NCBI GenBank assembly: GCA_963664405.1
Contig: OY761158.1
Span: 352,001-416,000 of the forward strand
Length of the DNA: 64,000 nt
Origin: Thermoanaerobaculia bacterium
GTDB lineage: Bacteria > Acidobacteriota > Thermoanaerobaculia > Multivoradales > Multivoraceae
Direction of reading: 5' to 3'
Under the pieces are notes generated by a model. The model made no database searches, was not told where the DNA came from, and was given only the letters and a program-made list of their open reading frames with translations. Each line of letters opens with the position of its first letter. Within the stretch, counting starts at the first letter, position 1. Below, piece by piece: positions 6,932 to 61,312 of the stretch. Made by a program: the position numbers and the translations under genes.

Positions 6932-7302
6932 TTGGAGTTCTACTTTCGAGGCGTGAATCGCGAGGTGCTCGTTCTGTCGGCCGACGGCGGCCTGGGCTCG
7001 GATACTGCCGCTCACTTCGTCGACGAGCTCAAGGAGCTGATTCGAGGCGGCGCCACCAAGCTACTGGAGGAGGAAGCGCCATCGACTGCACCCAACTCAC
7101 CCACATTTCGAGTCTCGGCCTCGGCATTCTGGTCCGGCTCCACCACACCATGGCAAAACAAGGTGGCGACGTGAAGCTGGCCGCAGTGCGAAGCCTGGTC
7201 GTCGACCTCCTCGGCCACCTCAATCTCGACCGCCTCTTCGAGATCTATCCCGACGTCGACTCGGCCATGGAGGCCTTCGACTCCGAACGGGAGAGCACCT
7301 AG
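6932..7302 (+). pseudogene. STAS-domain anti-sigma factor antagonist, frameshifted by a 14-nt insertion
   Basis: Frame 1 reads LEFYFRGVNREVLVLSADGGL...GATKLL; frame 2 reads IDCTQLTHISSLGLGILVRLH...KLAAV...FEIYPDVDSAMEAF*. Deleting 7067-7080 (gaggaggaagcgcc) joins them in frame. Confidence 0.8.
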
Positions 7303-7463
7303 ACCAGCGTTTCCAAAGTTCGCGCACACATCTCGGCCCCTTCTGCCCGCTGGCGGCGTTGCGCCTCCTCGACATATTGCCCAATATGCCTGCGTCGCCG
7401 CGCCTGGCCAGCGAACAGAATGACCTCGAGCTGTGTGCACGAACTTTGGAAACGCTGGTCTAG
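7299..7463 (-). repeat. CTAG-bounded palindromic element E1 (arm type A, conserved hairpin core)
   Basis: Arms ctagaccagcgtttccaaagttcg / cgaactttggaaacgctggtctag; core catattg-cc-caatatg at 7373-7388. Confidence 0.9.
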
Positions 7464-17403: not shown

Positions 17404-17570
17404 CTAGTGTCCTGTAACAGTAGTTCGTCACACAACTCGCTGGCCCTTTCGCGCGCTGCCGTCGTTGCTCCTCCTCGACATATTCCCCAATATGCCTGCG
17501 TCGTAGCGCCTTGGCAGCACCCAAAATGACTGCGCGATTTATGCAACGAACCACTGTTACAGGACACTAG
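17404..17570 (-). repeat. CTAG-bounded palindromic element E2 (arm type B)
   Basis: Arms ctagtgtcctgtaacagt / actgttacaggacactag; core catatt-cccc-aatatg at 17479-17494. Confidence 0.9.
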
Positions 17571-17745
17571 ACCAGCGTTTCCAGAGTTCGTGCTGCATAG
17601 CTCGAGCTCATTCTGTTCGCTGGCCAGGCGCGCCGACGCAGGCATATTGGGCAATATGTCGAGGAGCGCGGGGGCGCCTAGCCAACGCCGGCAGCGGGCA
17701 GAAGGGGCCGAGATATGTGCGCGAACTTTGGGAACGCTGGTCTAG
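17567..17745 (+). repeat. CTAG-bounded palindromic element E3 (arm type A), sharing a CTAG with E2
   Basis: Near-identical to the reverse complement of E1, plus an extra internal segment; core at 17643-17658. Confidence 0.9.
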
Positions 17746-17799
17746 AATCATCTCGAGACCAGTCGGCGCGACTGCGAGGAACGGTCTCAGGAGGCGACG

Positions 17800-19173
17800 A
17801 TGTCTATCGAATCAGGCTCGCATTCGACCCCCTTCCGCCATCACTCTTTCGACAGGCGGACCAGATACCTGCTGTTTGCGGTGGCGCTGCTCCCTCTTCT
17901 TGCCGACCCAGCGCCGTTGCAGGGAGCGGAAGAAGTTCCCATCATGATTCCAGCCCCGGCTCCCGGAGATCAATACTGGCCTCGCTGGAGAGGCCCTTCC
18001 GGCCAGGGCCTGGTCAAGGGCAGTGGCTACCCCGATCGGTGGTCCGCGACCGAGAATGTGCTGTGGAAGGTGGAGGTGCCGGGCCGCGGACACTCCTCAC
18101 CAATCATCTGGGGCCGGCATCTCTTTCTCACCACCTCCTACGAGCAGGGCCGGCGGCGTTCGATGCTCGCCTTCGATCGCAGCAACGGGCGTCTGATGTG
18201 GGAGAGCTTCGTACCCCAGACAGGCCCCTCGAGAATCCACAGCAAGAACAGCTATGCCTCGAGTACGCCGCTAACCGATGGCGAACGCATCATCGGCTAC
18301 TTTGGGAACGATGGCCTGGCCGCGTTCGATTTCGACGGAAAGCTGCTCTGGCATCAGAGCTTCGGCGACGTCCCCACCCGTCACGGCACCGCCGGCTCAC
18401 CCCTCTTGTACGAGGATCGAGTGATCCTCTACCAGGACCACAACGGCCCGAAGGGCTCCTTCATCGCCGCTTATGCGAAGGAAACGGGTAAGCAGCTGTG
18501 GCTGACCCCTCGACGGGAGACGGTCGGTTGGGGAAGCCCGGTCGCAGTGCGCCTGGCCGACCACGACGAGATCATCGTCAGCGGGCAGCGAGCGGTCTAT
18601 GGCTACGCTCCCTCAACGGGCGCCGAGCTCTGGACTGTGAAGGGCAACCTCAGCGAGGTGACGCCGACGCCGGTAGTTGGCGCAGGACTGGTCTTCTCGA
18701 CTTCCGGCCGGGCCGGTCCAACACTCGCCATCCGCCCCGGCGGTCGTGGCAACGTCACCAGCACCCATATCGCCTGGAGCACCACTAAGGGATCTCCATT
18801 CATTCCGTCGCCGCTGATTTACCAGGACCGCCTCTATACGATCAACGACATGGCCAGTGTCGCAACCTGCTATCGCGCTAGCGACGGTGAGCTGCTATGG
18901 CAGGGCCGACTGGGAGAGGCTCGCCGAGAGAGCTTCTCGGCCTCCCCGATCGCGGTCGACGGAAAGGTCTTCCTGACCAATGACGAAGGCGACACCTTCG
19001 TTCTGCGCGCCGGCGACGATTTCGAGCTCCTTCACACCAACAGCCTCGACGAGGTGACTCTCGCCTCGCCGGCACTGGTAGACGGCCAATGGTTTTTCCG
19101 CACCGCTCGCCAACTCCTTTGTATCGGCGAGGCGAAGAAAAGGGCCCTAGGGGCCACGGCAGCGGCTCGATAG
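17800..19173 (+). CDS. PQQ-binding-like beta-propeller protein
   Basis: WPRWRGPSGQG, GHSSPIIWG, YASSTP, repeated Trp-docking motifs; RBS aggagg. Confidence 0.88.
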   Translation: MSIESGSHSTPFRHHSFDRRTRYLLFAVALLPLLADPAPLQGAEEVPIMIPAPAPGDQYWPRWRGPSGQGLVKGSGYPDRWSATENVLWKVEVPGRGHSSPIIWGRHLFLTTSYEQGRRRSMLAFDRSNGRLMWESFVPQTGPSRIHSKNSYASSTPLTDGERIIGYFGNDGLAAFDFDGKLLWHQSFGDVPTRHGTAGSPLLYEDRVILYQDHNGPKGSFIAAYAKETGKQLWLTPRRETVGWGSPVAVRLADHDEIIVSGQRAVYGYAPSTGAELWTVKGNLSEVTPTPVVGAGLVFSTSGRAGPTLAIRPGGRGNVTSTHIAWSTTKGSPFIPSPLIYQDRLYTINDMASVATCYRASDGELLWQGRLGEARRESFSASPIAVDGKVFLTNDEGDTFVLRAGDDFELLHTNSLDEVTLASPALVDGQWFFRTARQLLCIGEAKKRALGATAAAR

Positions 19174-19189
19174 GCCTGGGCCGCCCTCC

Positions 19190-21055
19190 ATGTTCGGCCC
19201 ACACGAGCTACTAGCGCCGCCACCGCAGCGCTGTCGCGTCTCCGAAGAGGCGCTAGCTCTACCTCGACACATCGCCTACTCGCCGCTTCCCGAGGAGGCG
19301 GCTGCGCCCCTCGAGAGGCTCGATCGCGCTCTTCGGCGCGTCGGCTCCGAGCTCTCATCCGCCTCCACGACCCAAGAGCCGTTTCTTCGCTGTGAGAGCG
19401 GAGCTGAAGGACTTCCGGCGCAGGGTTACAGGCTAAGGGTGGGTCCATCCGGAATCGACATCGCGGCTCGGGATCGTCCGGGCCTCCACTACGCGATCTC
19501 CACCCTTGCGCAGTGGTGCCGACTCCACGAGGGCCGCGCGGCGCCGTCCCTTGGAGCCCTCGAGATCGAGGACGCGCCTGACATCGAGAACCGCGGCGTG
19601 ATGCTAGACATCAGTCGCAACAAGGTACCGAGGCTCGAGACCCTATTCGACCTCGTCGACCTCCTAGCCGGCTGGAAGATCAACCAGCTCCAGCTCTACA
19701 CCGAGCACACCTTCGAGTACCGCGGACACGAGGCAGTTTGGCGCCATGCCAGCCCGCTCACGCCTGACGACATCCGCGCCCTCGACGCCCACTGTAGGGC
19801 TCGCTGCATAGAGCTCGTTCCCAACCAAAACAGCCTCGGACACATGCATCGCTGGCTGGTACATGAGCCCTATCGTCAGCTTGCGGAGTGCCCCGAGGGT
19901 ATCGAGCACCCCTTCAGCAAGGTTCGCGAGCCCTTCAGCCTGTGTCCGACCGACCCCGGCTCTCTGGCGCTCCTTGACGACCTCTACGCTCAGCTCCTTC
20001 CCTGCTTCACCAGTGATCTCTTCAACGTCGGCCTCGACGAGACTTTCGACCTGGGTAAAGGACGCTCCGGGGAGCCTTGCGGCGAGCTGGGCGGGGCGCG
20101 TGTCTATCTCGACTTCCTGCGCGCTGTCCATCAACGCGTGGAGGCTCATGGCAGAAGGATGATGTTCTGGGGAGACGTCATCCTCGACCACCCCGAGCTG
20201 GTCTCCGAGCTCCCGAAACGGGCGGTCGCTCTGCTCTGGGGCTATGAGGCGACCCACCCCTTCGCCGAGCAAGCCGCGATCCTGGCAGCTTCGCCTTTAG
20301 ACTTTTATCTATGCCCCGGCACCAGCAGCTGGCGAAGCTTTTCGGGGCGCTGGCGGAATGCGGTTCTCAACCTCGGAGCCGGCGCCACCGCCGCCCATGA
20401 TCACGGCGCCCTCGGCTACCTGATCACGGACTGGGGAGATAACGGCCACCTTCAAGTACTCCCGATCAGCTATGCGGGCTTTCTGGCCGGTGCTTGCTTT
20501 GCCTGGAGAATCCAGAGCGCAAGAGCGCCACTCGAGTTACCGTTGGCGCGCCTACTCGACCTTCATGCCTTCGACGGCCTCAGCCTCGGCGCCGTCACCG
20601 AAGCTCTCGGCAACGCCTACCTCGAGAGCGGCGCCGAGCTGCTGAACGGTACCGCGCTATTCCATCTGTTGATGTCGGCCGATTCTCCGTTCTCCGACCG
20701 AGGTCTCGACAAGCTGGACCCGAAAGCTCTGGCAAGAACCGCCGAGTCGCTGCAGGCTCAACTCGAGCTCCTGCGCGAGCTCAGCCCGACCGGCGCGGAG
20801 GACACCCGAGTCCGGGATGAGCTGACATGGACCGCGGAGGCACTCCTCCTTGCCTGCGATCTAGGGCTCGAGCGCCTGGCTAGGCCGGAGGCGCGCCTGG
20901 CGGAACTGGGGCGCGACACGCGCGTGGCGCTAGCTCAGCGAGTCGAGGGTCTCGTCGAGCGGCGACGCAAGCTATGGTTGGCTCGAAACCGTCCCGGCGG
21001 AATGGAGGACTCCCTCGCACTTCTAGGGAGCCTGCTCGAGCTGCTCGCGCTCTAG
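19190..21055 (+). CDS. Glycoside hydrolase family 20 (beta-N-acetylhexosaminidase-like)
   Basis: RGVMLDISR, KINQLQLY, NSLGH, catalytic GLDET, TDWGD. Confidence 0.85.
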   Translation: MFGPHELLAPPPQRCRVSEEALALPRHIAYSPLPEEAAAPLERLDRALRRVGSELSSASTTQEPFLRCESGAEGLPAQGYRLRVGPSGIDIAARDRPGLHYAISTLAQWCRLHEGRAAPSLGALEIEDAPDIENRGVMLDISRNKVPRLETLFDLVDLLAGWKINQLQLYTEHTFEYRGHEAVWRHASPLTPDDIRALDAHCRARCIELVPNQNSLGHMHRWLVHEPYRQLAECPEGIEHPFSKVREPFSLCPTDPGSLALLDDLYAQLLPCFTSDLFNVGLDETFDLGKGRSGEPCGELGGARVYLDFLRAVHQRVEAHGRRMMFWGDVILDHPELVSELPKRAVALLWGYEATHPFAEQAAILAASPLDFYLCPGTSSWRSFSGRWRNAVLNLGAGATAAHDHGALGYLITDWGDNGHLQVLPISYAGFLAGACFAWRIQSARAPLELPLARLLDLHAFDGLSLGAVTEALGNAYLESGAELLNGTALFHLLMSADSPFSDRGLDKLDPKALARTAESLQAQLELLRELSPTGAEDTRVRDELTWTAEALLLACDLGLERLARPEARLAELGRDTRVALAQRVEGLVERRRKLWLARNRPGGMEDSLALLGSLLELLAL

Positions 21056-21217
21056 TGTTGTGTCTCCGACATGGCTTGCCAAGAGCTCGAGATCATTTTA
21101 TTCGCTGTCAAGGAGCGACGAGGCAGGCATATTGGGAATATGTCGACGAGTCGCGACGACGGCAGCGGGCAAAAGGGGCCGAGATATTGGTAAGCCATGT
21201 CGGAGACACGGCACTAA
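21052..21217 (+). repeat. Palindromic element E4 (arm type C; CTAG...CTAA)
   Basis: Arms ctagtgttgtgtctccgacatggctt / aagccatgtcggagacacggcactaa; core catatt-ggg-aatatg at 21128-21142. Confidence 0.88.
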
Positions 21218-27989: not shown

Positions 27990-28186
27990 CTAGCCTGGAT
28001 TATTCATGAGGTCCGTAGCGAGGTGCCGCAGATGCCCGGAGATACAAGGCGTCGCGACCGAGGGCACCGCAGGCGTATTTGGCAATACGTCGAGGGGCGC
28101 GATGGGGACGCCCAGTCCGAGCGCAACGAAGTAGATTCGGGCAGCTGCGGCACCGCAGTAGGAGCTTCATGAACAATCCAGGCTAG
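27990..28186 (+). repeat. CTAG-bounded palindromic element E5 (arm type D)
   Basis: Arms ctagcctggattattcatga / tcatgaacaatccaggctag; core cgtatt-tggc-aatacg (compensatory variant) at 28074-28089. Confidence 0.88.
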
Positions 28187-40920: not shown

Positions 40921-42483
40921 TTAGGTCCGTCGCGAAAGGCCAGACCTGGAAGCAGAATGACCGACAGCGACGAGGAACATCACGCTCTTGCCCTCGGCAT
41001 GCGGAGAGAAGAATCCGACGACCTCCTCATCGAGGAAGGTGAGGCCGGTAGCACCGAAGCGCTGAGCGTACGCCGCCAGGTACAAGCGTCCTCCTCGGAT
41101 ACCGCCCTCCAGCTGAGCGGCGCGATAGCCACGATTGCCCCACGTTTTCAAGACCCGGTCGAGATCGGTGAGGCAGTAAATATTTGCTGCGGCGTCTGCG
41201 GGCAGCTCTTGAAACAGTCCAAGTCTTCCAGCAGCGTTGCGGAAATCTCCTTCGCGCAGCAGCTCCAGCGAGGCGGCCTCCCGTTGGTAGTAATAGGCAC
41301 CCGCCGGCAATTGCTCCACCGCGTGGACGATCAGGTAGAAATCGATGAGCGGCTCACTCCCGCACGCGAGGAAGTCGGCGGCAAGCTCGCTGCTGGCTCT
41401 ATCGAGAAGGGTGGCAAGCTGCTCAAGCGAGATCGAGGCCTCTCGTTCGAAGGCCCGTGTCGAGCCACGGCGTCGGATGATGGCCTCGATCGACTCGGAC
41501 GGAGCCTCCTGGTTCGCCAGGGGCTCGAGCGAGTACACGCGCCCTTCTACCGTTGGGGACCTGTCATCCCGGGCCGCCTGTCGCCAAGCGGCGGCCTCGG
41601 CACCCGACTCGAGCGACGATGCTGCATGCATCTGACGAATGGCAGGGTAATCGACTTCGGTTGGCGAGAGCGGAGCCGTTTCGAAGTGAATCTCGGGAAC
41701 GTCGCGAAGCGGAGGCGCGTCGGCTTCGCTCCATCCCAGGGGCACAAGCGTGAGGGCCCCCTCCTTCTTCGGGTCGAGCCCTAGCAGATGTTCCACCGGA
41801 CGGTCTGCGAAACCGATCACGACTCGTGGTGCGAGGCCCTCTGCCCCTGCTACAGCCAGGAAATTCGCGTGAAGGGTACCGGCGTCCCAGAAACAGTGGC
41901 GGTAAGCTCTCGCTTGATACTTCCAGGAATTGCGCCAGTAGGTGGACACGGACACGACGATCACCGGTGCATGTGCCAGCGCAGGCTCCTGACCACTGGC
42001 ATCGATGAGAACGGCGCGGTGATCGCCCTCTCTCAGCCGCCTCAGGGCGAAGTCATGCGGCCCGAAATGGTAGACGCCGGCGGGCAGGTCGGGAAGATCT
42101 TCGCAGACGAGATAGAGATCGATGTGATAGAGGGCCCCCGTGTTGGGATGGGCCCGGAAGGAAATCACACCACCCGGGTAGGGCTTCTGCTTGGTAATGC
42201 CAGCCGACAAGTAGAGAACTCGGGAGAGACCGCAAAGATCAGGGATCTTCTCCCGACTGTCCTCCCGGGCCGACCCTTCGGAGTTAGAGATCGCCTCGAG
42301 CGCGGGTACCTCGAGCGTCGAGCGTTCCCCTACGAGGGGAATAGGCTGGAGGGTGGTGTAGATCTTGAGCGGCTGCGGCTGGTTGTCGTAGTCCAGGTAG
42401 TGAGGGCTCTCTAAGAGCCTTCGCTCATTGTGCTGAGTCGCCTCGTGGTATGTGTATGCGGCCTCGATGTCTCGGTTGCGCAT
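40921..42483 (-). CDS. SagB/ThcOx-family tandem nitroreductase-fold dehydrogenase
   Basis: YHEAT, FRAHPNTGALY, WKYQARAYRHCFWDAG; second domain IRRRGSTR...RGYRAAQLEGG. Confidence 0.85.
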   Translation of the reverse strand: MRNRDIEAAYTYHEATQHNERRLLESPHYLDYDNQPQPLKIYTTLQPIPLVGERSTLEVPALEAISNSEGSAREDSREKIPDLCGLSRVLYLSAGITKQKPYPGGVISFRAHPNTGALYHIDLYLVCEDLPDLPAGVYHFGPHDFALRRLREGDHRAVLIDASGQEPALAHAPVIVVSVSTYWRNSWKYQARAYRHCFWDAGTLHANFLAVAGAEGLAPRVVIGFADRPVEHLLGLDPKKEGALTLVPLGWSEADAPPLRDVPEIHFETAPLSPTEVDYPAIRQMHAASSLESGAEAAAWRQAARDDRSPTVEGRVYSLEPLANQEAPSESIEAIIRRRGSTRAFEREASISLEQLATLLDRASSELAADFLACGSEPLIDFYLIVHAVEQLPAGAYYYQREAASLELLREGDFRNAAGRLGLFQELPADAAANIYCLTDLDRVLKTWGNRGYRAAQLEGGIRGGRLYLAAYAQRFGATGLTFLDEEVVGFFSPHAEGKSVMFLVAVGHSASRSGLSRRT

Positions 42484-42504
42484 CGGAAGGGGGTTCTCCC
42501 GGTT

Positions 42505-42816
42505 CTAAGGGATCTCCACTTGGATGCCCTCCTCGTCCACTTTCACCTCGTAGCATGCCACCTCCTGCGGTGCGGGAGGGCTGAGGTTCTTCCCGGTGCA
42601 CAGGTCAAAACTCGCTCCGTGCCACGGGCAGGTGACGGTCGTCCCATCGAGTGAGCCTTCGGAGAGCGGGCCTCCTCTGTGAGTGCATTTTCCGCCGATG
42701 ACATAGAACACCCCATCCACGTTAAAAAGGGCGATCTCTTGGCCCCCGACCTCAACAGCCTTGCCCTGTCCATGGGCGAGGTCATTCGCTTCCGCTACCT
42801 TGTGAAAAGTTCCCAC
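42505..42816 (-). CDS. Rieske (2Fe-2S) ferredoxin
   Basis: CTH...CPWH motifs; RBS aggagg. Confidence 0.9.
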   Translation of the reverse strand: MGTFHKVAEANDLAHGQGKAVEVGGQEIALFNVDGVFYVIGGKCTHRGGPLSEGSLDGTTVTCPWHGASFDLCTGKNLSPPAPQEVACYEVKVDEEGIQVEIP

Positions 42817-42954
42817 AGAATGCCTCCTTTGAGCGAGTAGTAACCGACACTATCGATGGAGTTTCCAGCCTGGTCGGCTCCGGAAGACCCCGATCGCCTT
42901 GACCCCTTGTTTCTAGGTCCTAGAAGGGATTCCCGTTGAGAGCCATCCGATGGC

Positions 42955-60376: not shown

Positions 60377-61312
60377 CTAAGGCCCCGCCCGAGCCTCGGG
60401 CACGTACGGCAATCCCGGAGGGAAGAAGCCGGGCGGGAAGACCGCATCAAGGACTCCGTACTTAAGCAGCTCGGCGGCCTCACGGTAGGCATTGACGAAC
60501 TCCCGATACAGCTCTCGGAGCTTCTCATGGTGCTCTCTCGAGACTGCGTGAAAAGCCGGTGCGGGTGAGTTGCTCGATGTCTCCGGTCGCGAGTGCGGAT
60601 CCTGCCGCAGGATCTTCTTCCTCCCCAGCGGCGGCTTCCCCGTCTCGTCTCTCCGCCGGCGAGCAACCGCGCTGATGTCGCGCAGCAGATCCACCATGAG
60701 CTCGATTCTCCGCCGATGGGGCCAATCCACCAGACAGGGGACGGGACTCAGAATCACCGTCTCCTCGGACAGAAAGTCCTCTGGATTCAGGTCCTTACCT
60801 CCGCGGCCAGCGTTGTACTCCCCGGTCTGATTGCGCCACACCCCGCCTCCCATCTCGGCGTAGCCTCGGCTCAGCGCACCCACCGACTGGACCCCGGGCC
60901 AATCCGCCGAGTCACGGACCAGACCTTCTTTCACTCCTTGGGAGAAGAGGTACCTCAGGCGTCCGATCTGAGCCTCCGGCTCGTCGGAGACGATGATGTG
61001 ACTGTAGGGTCGATGCCAGAACTTTCCCGACCAGCCGTGGAGCGTACCGACCTTGCGAGCGATCAGGCCGTTCACGTACTCCATGAAGTCGCTCAACTGC
61101 TTGGTGCTCTCAGGGACAACGAGCATGTGGTAGTGATTAGAGAGAACGGCGAGGCCACAAATCTTCATCCCCGTGCGCTTCTGAGCACGAGCGATCACGC
61201 CGAGAATGATCCGATTCACCTCCGGCGATGGACGGAGTAGGAAGCGCTCCTGCTGCGTTCGTGTTGTGACCTCAACAAGGCGATTGGCTACCAGTCCTCT
61301 GCGTTTTCGCAC
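60377..61312 (-). CDS. HUH Y1 (RAYT/IS200-like) tyrosine transposase
   Basis: EVTTRT..ERFLLRP, VLSNHYHMLV (HUH), FWHRPY, LRY; start uncertain (the open frame extends to 61432). Confidence 0.8.
   Translation of the reverse strand: MRKRRGLVANRLVEVTTRTQQERFLLRPSPEVNRIILGVIARAQKRTGMKICGLAVLSNHYHMLVVPESTKQLSDFMEYVNGLIARKVGTLHGWSGKFWHRPYSHIIVSDEPEAQIGRLRYLFSQGVKEGLVRDSADWPGVQSVGALSRGYAEMGGGVWRNQTGEYNAGRGGKDLNPEDFLSEETVILSPVPCLVDWPHRRRIELMVDLLRDISAVARRRRDETGKPPLGRKKILRQDPHSRPETSSNSPAPAFHAVSREHHEKLRELYREFVNAYREAAELLKYGVLDAVFPPGFFPPGLPYVPEARAGP

Follow-up and report, generated by a model that had tools for sequence, protein, structure and literature searches.

Why should the imperfections of a palindromic DNA repeat be shared unequally between its two strands? 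The question is raised by a stretch of 64,000 nucleotides (nt) from a Thermoanaerobaculia bacterium (NCBI GenBank assembly GCA_963664405.1, contig OY761158.1, positions 352,001 to 416,000; G000:C1:352001-416000 in our numbering), hereafter called the window, which belongs to a genome assembled as a single contig of 6.78 Mb with 62.6% G+C. The window carries five palindromic elements (a copy near 7.3 kb, E2, E1, E4 and E5), all of which end in CTAG or a one-letter variant thereof; the inverted-repeat arms measured in the window are 27-37 nt long, with 86-89% complementarity. A preliminary description of this DNA had claimed that the mismatches between the arms are mostly G-T when they are read on the strand that carries the central core as GCAGGCATATT (the core-sense strand). 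A transposase binding duplex DNA would be blind to such a preference, because G-T and A-C are the same base-pair difference viewed from opposite strands. We report here that the preference extends to 185 copies in this genome and to related elements of other genomes, that it follows the orientation of a conserved apical module, and that its simplest account is purifying selection on the fold of the core-sense strand.

Mismatch polarity around a conserved apical module

Using an nhmmer profile made from four of the window elements and run over the whole genome, we obtained 425 raw hits, which correspond to 264 non-overlapping matches and to 185 full-length copies (90 on the + strand, 95 on the − strand; 159-179 nt). 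A typical copy is about 165 nt long, is bounded by CTAG and forms an end-to-end hairpin of about 80 bp; the copies are dispersed and contain no transposase open reading frame (ORF). Each copy was aligned to its own reverse complement with all transitions scored alike, a procedure that favours neither strand, and the mismatches were read on the core-sense strand. The 185 copies comprise 11642 Watson-Crick pairs, 1208 G-T mismatches and 298 A-C mismatches, and the corresponding G-T:A-C counts in the window are 5:1 (7.3-kb copy), 8:4 (E2), 8:2 (E1) and 8:3 (E4). The preliminary description was correct in this respect, as it was in the placement of the five elements and in the arm strings it quoted, where we count by eye four wobbles in E2, two in E4 and one in the E1 type. 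In this larger sample the G-T excess holds, and the outcome that would speak against it, equal counts, did not arise outside the small, diverged E5 subfamily. A second asymmetry, absent from that description, opposes 1601 purine-purine mismatches to 78 pyrimidine-pyrimidine ones (individual counts being 1038 for G-A/A-G, 478 for G-G, 17 for T-T and 7 for C-C). Nearly all pairing defects are of types that leave the core-sense strand stably folded (G-T, G-A and G-G), whereas on the opposite strand they would be disruptive (A-C, C-T and C-C). The core-sense strand is predicted to be the more stable of the two in 185/185 copies with RNA and DNA parameters alike (sense versus antisense, −106.6 versus −83.8 kcal/mol with RNA parameters and −58.6 versus −47.6 with DNA parameters).

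Because many mismatches are common to several copies by descent, the raw counts overstate the effect, and independent events were therefore counted. Grouping the 185 copies at 10% divergence yields 11 clusters (sizes 89, 24, 16, 13, 12, 11, 7, 6, 4, 2 and 1), several G-T pairs are common to 6-9 of these clusters, and most of the raw difference of 1208 to 298 was inherited with the subfamily consensus. When only the cluster consensus sequences are considered, there remain 29 distinct G-T versus 15 distinct A-C positions, the latter lying mostly in the poorly paired apex or occurring as adjacent double mismatches. When the count was limited to clusters no more than 5% diverged, and to changes away from a pair that is Watson-Crick in the consensus, we found 68 distinct G-T versus 32 distinct A-C events (p = 4e-4), and 54 versus 23 among private, single-copy variants (p = 5e-4). 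The sense-strand changes behind these events are C>T (30) and A>G (37), versus G>A (14) and T>C (18).

A mutation bias linked to the replication strand was considered and rejected. The cumulative GC skew places the replication origin at about 2.74 Mb and the terminus at about 6.76 Mb, and the singleton G-T:A-C counts are 25:11 for copies whose sense strand is the G-rich one and 29:12 for the others, so that replication asymmetry fails to explain the bias. As a separate observation, only 75/185 copies have their sense strand on the leading, G-rich strand of replication (p = 0.012), a depletion possibly due to selection against having the strand that folds better on the lagging-strand template.

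The elements consist of two very different parts, namely the outer 55-60 bp, which form variable arms, and the apex, which is a conserved module of about 55 nt. The arms are nearly wholly different between subfamilies (CTAGACCAGCGTTTCC..., CTAGTGTCCTGTATCAG..., CTAGTGTTGTGTCTCCGAC... and CTAGTGTCCCGTGTGGG... here, CTAGTGACCCGTCAACCG... in genome G028), and they are still complementary over their full length, the outer arms covarying between subfamilies, a point that the preliminary description did not contain. The consensus of the apex is ..AAGGCG-nnn-CGACGCAG-GC(stem-loop)GT-CGAGGAG-nnn-CAACGCC..., and it combines helices that covary, internal loops rich in purines, a bulge formed by AAC and a G-T pair that is fixed. 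In an alignment of 78 distinct cores (A2), 85.8% of the cells are paired in the proposed structure, versus 68.5% in shuffled alignments and 25-52% when the partners are slid by 1-3 columns. Double-sided changes number 232, versus 86.5 in shuffles; 13 of the 19 pairs have changed on both sides, and the covariation score is 0.372, versus 0.108 after shuffling and at most 0.087 in the slid controls. The 3-bp helix displays at least seven Watson-Crick combinations (by eye), and the apical stem varies at four positions. Its second pair (36-55) is G-T in 77/78 sequences, while the search pattern also permitted A-T. Many of the unpaired columns were set by the search pattern, and their invariance among the 78 cores proves nothing by itself; these columns are also conserved in copies found by profile or BLAST. 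Rfam 15 gave no hit at the gathering score in the window and none at E ≤ 1 on three loci, and ten further loci yielded only four sub-threshold hits at chance level.

The apical core occurs in 11/30 sampled relatives of the same order, and the exact degenerate core pattern occurs at no fewer than 118 loci in GTDB species genomes. The matches listed are mostly from Acidobacteriota (Thermoanaerobaculia, Terriglobia and Vicinamibacterales), and the further labels among them are Brocadiaceae, Planctomycetia, Gemmatimonadota, Longimicrobiales, Omnitrophota, Bdellovibrionaceae and Oscillospiraceae. Inside the phylum itself the exact pattern has a patchy occurrence (5/200 other genomes), which makes an origin of the core from a housekeeping RNA unlikely.

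To count mismatches in these relatives, pairing was extended outward from the core with strict, strand-symmetric scoring, which left 44/101 loci usable (at least 30 Watson-Crick pairs). These 44 hairpins form 20 clusters by arm sequence. With one representative per cluster (n = 20), we counted 68 G-T versus 20 A-C mismatches (p = 3e-7), and among isolated mismatches, with two Watson-Crick pairs to either side, 28 G-T, 3 A-C and 39 others. A looser extension had given 191 G-T versus 144 A-C; it ran past the element ends into the flanks, and was replaced because this overrun diluted the signal. In part of the superfamily the arms are of other types, and a 3-bp TAA or TCA takes the place of CTAG at the flanks. 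Elements of about 270 nt in other Acidobacteriota (L132, L188, L138, L104 and similar loci) possess two cores in inverted orientation, so that each strand bears one sense core. The whole superfamily shows the asymmetry, invariably in step with the orientation of its core, and we infer that the strand polarity is set by the conserved apical module found across phyla, which the preliminary description did not mention either. As a side observation on the two-core elements, the downstream GCGTTGCTCGCTCC can pair with GAGGAGCGGCAACGC of the first core (15 pairs with one bulge, by eye), and an alternative fold is possible.

Ends, composite forms and comparable known systems

The ends of the elements indicate how they insert. 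CTAG..CTAG ends are found in 146/185 copies, and the informative variants are TTAG..CTAG (4 copies), CTAG..CTAA (6) and TTAG..CTAA (1), with neither TTAG..TTAG nor CTAA..CTAA among the 185 full copies. All 11 informative copies fit a 2-bp TA duplication in a YTAR target, and none fits a 4-bp duplication. As these variants are those of a Y-TA-R target, the duplication would be the 2-bp TA and not the 4-bp motif, with an element that starts with G and ends with C. This end signature, together with the small size and the terminal inverted repeats, identifies the elements as MITEs (miniature inverted-repeat transposable elements), which apparently form an undescribed family of TA-duplicating MITEs. 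The preliminary description had not recognised this identity. Empty sites were sought in the contigs of DNA sequencing runs (Logan), where none was recovered; contigs stop at the repeats and none spans an element. One of these runs (X1) is a metagenome, which holds related repeats only. CTAG itself is scarce in the genome, with 7502 occurrences observed versus about 23200 expected by base composition.

Between convergent genes lie 59/185 elements, versus 19% of the spacers genome-wide, and the terminal TAG doubles as the stop codon of an adjacent ORF in 32/185 copies, E4 included. This siting at gene 3' ends and TAG stops is explained by the CTAG/TAG target.

Transposons of the IS630/Tc1/mariner group insert at TA, which they duplicate, and act through double-strand cleavage, as described in PMC2170065, whose reference list also cites a preference of IS630 for CTAG. 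The genome contains one complete DDE_3 (IS630-like) element of about 1245 bp (G000:C1:5164180-5165423) and one 5'-truncated copy, 88% identical to it. Both resident elements, like the IS630-like elements of genome G028, lie in a C-TA-G context. One resident right end (AGAACTTCCGTCCCGGAGTACTAG) resembles a type-E arm through the common pattern GAACTT..CGG..ACTAG, and an insertion sequence (IS) of genome G028 resembles the type-A arms, the identity being only partial in both cases. The resident IS630-like elements are candidate mobilisers of the MITEs.

A larger parent of the elements was sought among two composites of 2.7 kb, L001 (G000:C1:6758700-6761700) and L002 (G000:C1:6272300-6275250). 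In both of them a unit of 2535 bp interrupts the apical loop of a type-A MITE after GGGGAAT; the unit encodes a tyrosine recombinase of the Phage_integrase family (299 aa) and a transposase of the Y2_Tnp/Zn_Tnp_IS91 type (398 aa). Between the two composites the arms are identical, and they coincide with the consensus of a young subfamily of 12 copies (mean divergence 0.7%), whereas the two inserts differ at 71 sites, 61 of which fall in one 400-nt patch near the 3' end. Elsewhere in this genome the unit occurs only as one 118-nt fragment. None of the relatives of the Y2 transposase, at 29 loci from 36 other genomes and in five other copies here, is flanked by an element or by half-motifs. Since these relatives lack MITE ends, the tyrosine recombinase plus IS91-type Y2 unit is an insertion and was rejected as the parent; in our view, an IS inserted into a MITE and afterwards probably moved with it. 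The five other copies belong to a second IS91-family element (G000:C1:35862-37049, 41717-42904, 597919-599106, 616183-617370 and 888238-889425), whose Y2 transposase is 48% identical to that of the composites and which has no MITE ends. A RAYT/REP system was rejected as well, as the Y1_Tnp genes are not flanked by elements: of 13 weak PF01797 matches in the genome, one lies within 1 kb of an element.

Comparison with known systems singles out two uncommon features of the family, the strand-specific mismatch spectrum and the structured core common to several phyla and end types. RUP of Streptococcus pneumoniae and other IS630/Tc1-type (Stowaway-like) MITEs are, like the present elements, non-coding, multi-copy, about 100-200 bp long, and provided with TA termini and terminal inverted repeats; their repeats resemble those of an IS630-family element (review PMC2229807), a likeness that is only partial in the present elements. 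Unlike them, the present elements vary in their arms and conserve an internal apical module across phyla and end types, and they form over their entire length one hairpin whose mismatch spectrum is strand-specific. ERIC and Correia/NEMIS resemble our family in being imperfectly palindromic, 100-170 bp long, located near genes and terminated by TA, and their transcripts form long stem-loops that affect mRNA processing, the effect of ERIC being orientation-dependent (PMC2229807). They differ from it in having no sequence relation to it; a gene-orientation bias is absent here, and for the present family an action at the RNA level is putative. REP and REPIN elements (mobilised by RAYT, a Y1 HUH enzyme) share with it a short conserved structured unit and the relevance of single-strand folding, and the two inverted cores of other Acidobacteriota resemble two REPs joined in a REPIN; unlike them, the present elements show a TA duplication, long arms, no visible GTAG/CGTC tag and no flanking of Y1_Tnp genes. 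In the attC sites of integrons, structure is more conserved than sequence, and the active form is the fold of one specific strand. Our elements resemble attC in that structure is kept over sequence and the fold of one strand is favoured (by sequence analysis in our case); unlike them, attC conserves the base of the hairpin and varies its centre, whereas the apex is conserved and the base varies here, outside any integron context. In the openly accessible literature (subscription journals lay outside this scope) we met neither an account of this family nor any MITE study that compared G-T with A-C counts between strands.

MITEs are usually seen as duplex DNA parasites defined by their terminal repeats. 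Here the situation is reversed, the ends varying and an internal module being conserved. If confirmed, the family would provide a clear case, detectable from sequence only, of bacterial DNA transposons constrained at the level of the single strand, and would add a widespread, uncatalogued structured motif. It is also relevant to annotation, since hundreds of such repeats are present in Acidobacteriota genomes from soil and sediment, where they sit on TAG stop codons and break short-read assemblies.

What the polarity may reflect

From the following lines of evidence, we propose as the simplest account that purifying selection acts, at the level of the element lineage, on the fold of the sense strand. 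First, the asymmetry survives de-duplication and the replication control, is independent of the orientation of neighbouring genes and recurs in 20 arm families, which supports the earlier inference that selection, or a structure-dependent bias, operates on a folded single strand. Second, the bias rises with age, from about 2.3:1 among private variants to about 9:1 among isolated family-level mismatches. Third, the polarity goes with the orientation of a module that looks like a structured single-stranded nucleic acid, and both the helices of this module and the outer arms covary. The source of the polarity would be a strand-specific function of the apical module.

In the mechanism that we envisage, the elements would insert at TA, preferably inside CTAG, with duplication of the TA, and would be mobilised by a duplex-binding DDE transposase acting on their arms. 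Lineages would persist and spread only while their sense strand can fold, and the apical module would be a putative protein-binding or processing signal carried by the MITE and acting in the sense-strand transcript. Taken as a whole, this explanation (a TA-duplicating MITE with the sense-strand RNA as putative functional form) is the one to which we lean, tentatively and with somewhat less than even confidence. RNA is favoured over single-stranded DNA (ssDNA) as the putative form for several reasons: the character of the motif; the position of the elements at gene 3' ends; the two-core design, which would place a sense core in transcripts of either direction; and, weakly, the singletons, whose G-T:A-C counts are 18:6 where transcription reads in from the sense direction and 14:10 from the antisense direction (19:6 for both and 3:1 for neither). 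There are known cases of bacterial MITEs whose transcripts act as RNA hairpins (review PMC2229807).

In a more specific form of this proposal, possible though on balance unlikely, the apical module would be an undescribed strand-specific structured RNA (or ssDNA) motif travelling as cargo of MITEs with at least two end types (TA- and TNA-duplicating) in at least six phyla; the arms would evolve to keep the sense hairpin, and a putative activity of the module itself (processing signal, ribozyme-like cleavage or protein docking) would benefit the element.

Several observations weigh against the RNA-based explanation. The diverged E5 subfamily shows no bias (4 G-T and 8 A-C), and the preliminary description, which mentioned one exception in the E5 arm, was too mild on this point; with its degenerate core, E5 fits the idea that the asymmetry needs an intact core, E5 being one small family. 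The likeness of the MITE arms to the resident IS630-like ends is only partial, and some subgroups of the IS5 family also yield short TA-containing duplications. Among the genes that read into an element from at most 150 nt, 72 do so in the sense and 76 in the antisense orientation of the core, counted on a crude gene set of our own calls (4720 ORFs picked by length and GC3, the G+C content of third codon positions); the core is oriented independently of the neighbouring gene, as had been noticed from the window, and an RNA function in host transcripts would not predict such random orientation. The contrast between 18:6 and 14:10 is underpowered and not significant (Fisher p = 0.36). Neither a sigma-70-like promoter nor an intrinsic terminator was found in E2/E1, and a search for RNA sequencing runs containing the locus returned none. 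Finally, G-T, G-G and G-A are also the most stable mismatches in DNA, and folding with DNA parameters likewise favours the sense strand, so that ssDNA fits the mismatch data equally well.

Selection might accordingly act on the hairpin of the sense strand as ssDNA, during replication or in a strand-specific step of mobilisation, the module being read on the folded strand as is done by HUH enzymes or integron integrases. We regard this as rather unlikely, although several observations suit it: the greater stability of the sense strand with DNA parameters in 185/185 copies; a mismatch spectrum (1208 G-T, 1038 G-A/A-G and 478 G-G, far above 17 T-T and 7 C-C) that matches the order of mismatch stability in DNA; and the presence of the sense strand on the G-rich replication strand in only 75/185 copies (p = 0.012), which hints at folding of ssDNA in vivo. 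The lack of a gene-orientation bias is natural for a role at the DNA level, no promoter was found in E2/E1, and the two composites hold their tyrosine recombinase and IS91-type HUH unit exactly in the apical loop. However, the ends bear the signature of a family that cuts and pastes double-stranded DNA, the Y2 relatives (29 loci and five copies here) have neither the element nor half-motifs at their flanks, only 1/13 Y1_Tnp loci lies within 1 kb of an element, and the G-T:A-C ratio is the same in both replication orientations (25:11 and 29:12).

It is improbable, in our opinion, that no selection on the fold is involved and that a polarity-specific bias of mutation or repair, such as templated correction in a readily extruded sense hairpin, leaves the G mismatches behind. 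Because C>T (30) and A>G (37) both contribute to the excess, against 14 G>A and 18 T>C, a single-strand process could in principle produce it, and the purine-rich loops of the core make one strand an inherently better folder. Yet the bias is the same on both replication strands and the elements are randomly oriented with respect to genes, so that the ordinary asymmetries linked to replication or transcription do not account for it. It is stronger in old mismatches (28:3 among isolated ones) than in private ones (54:23), as filtering over time predicts, and the invariant unpaired bases and the fixed G-T pair beside covarying pairs point to constraint.

A function of the RNA at the level of the host, locus by locus, in which each hairpin would serve the upstream gene by stabilising its mRNA or processing it, a role that has been proposed for ERIC and Correia, appears quite improbable. 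The overrepresentation of the elements at the 3' ends of genes and at TAG stops invites this explanation, and such roles, together with the orientation dependence of ERIC, figure in the review PMC2229807; but the CTAG/TAG target itself accounts for the 3'-end preference, the read-in orientation is evenly divided (72 sense versus 76 antisense), and the patchiness in the phylum (exact core in 5/200 other genomes) is that of a selfish element. Last, a founder effect, whereby a few master copies with G-T mismatches were inherited by all others, would suit the inherited consensus that makes up most of the raw 1208:298 excess and the G-T pairs common to 6-9 clusters, but it is most improbable, being contradicted by the biased singletons (54:23) and by the bias in 20 unrelated arm families elsewhere.

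Copies in the window and minor observations

The first copy in the window (7299..7463, − strand; 5 G-T and 1 A-C) is of type A, with CTAGACCAGCGTTTCC... arms, and was recognised by core matches and as a full-length nhmmer match. E2 (17404..17570, − strand; inverted repeat I4; 8 G-T and 4 A-C) is a type-B copy with CTAGTGTCCTGTAACAG... arms, and its predicted fold is worth −97.4 for the sense versus −65.7 for the antisense strand. It adjoins E1 (17567..17745, + strand; inverted repeat I6; 8 G-T and 2 A-C), the two elements having one terminal CTAG (17567-17570) in common. E1 is a type-A copy with an optional 13-nt insert after GTCGAGGAG, and falls in cluster 6, the 24 copies of which all have this insert. 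Its apical core module (17624..17700, + strand), delineated by the alignment of the 78 distinct cores and the pair counts, comprises the helix GGCG/CGCC, the covarying 3-bp helix, the purine-rich internal loop CGACGCAG / CGAGGAG and the apical stem with its G-T pair.

E4 (21052..21217, + strand; inverted repeat I3; 8 G-T and 3 A-C) is a type-C copy with CTAGTGTTGTGTCTCCGACATGG... arms; its 5' CTAG includes the TAG stop of the ORF at 19190-21055, and its 3' end is CTAA, making it one of the CTAG..CTAA variants. TAG accounts for 1782/4720 stop codons in the crude ORF set. E5 (27990..28186, + strand; 4 G-T and 8 A-C, with no G-T excess) is a diverged relative of 197 nt with a degenerate core, and its subfamily counts 10 full copies genome-wide, as found by blastn.

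The 13-nt insert of E1 (17667-17683) recurs in 25 further copies genome-wide, with CGCGGGGGCGCCTAGCC in place of about 4 nt after GTCGAGGAG. It is present in two arm types (24 type-A and 2 type-B copies), which suggests an exchange of modules between subfamilies. The window also contains, at 60965-61219 (− strand), one of the 13 weak Y1_Tnp (IS200-like/RAYT-like) matches, in an open frame of 356 aa with no MITE copy nearby. Finally, the 3' arm of type A, at 17716-17745 in the window and in other type-A copies, carries an outward-facing ATG (ATGTGCGCGAACTTTGGAAACGCTGGTCTAG), which can add about 10 codons to a downstream gene.

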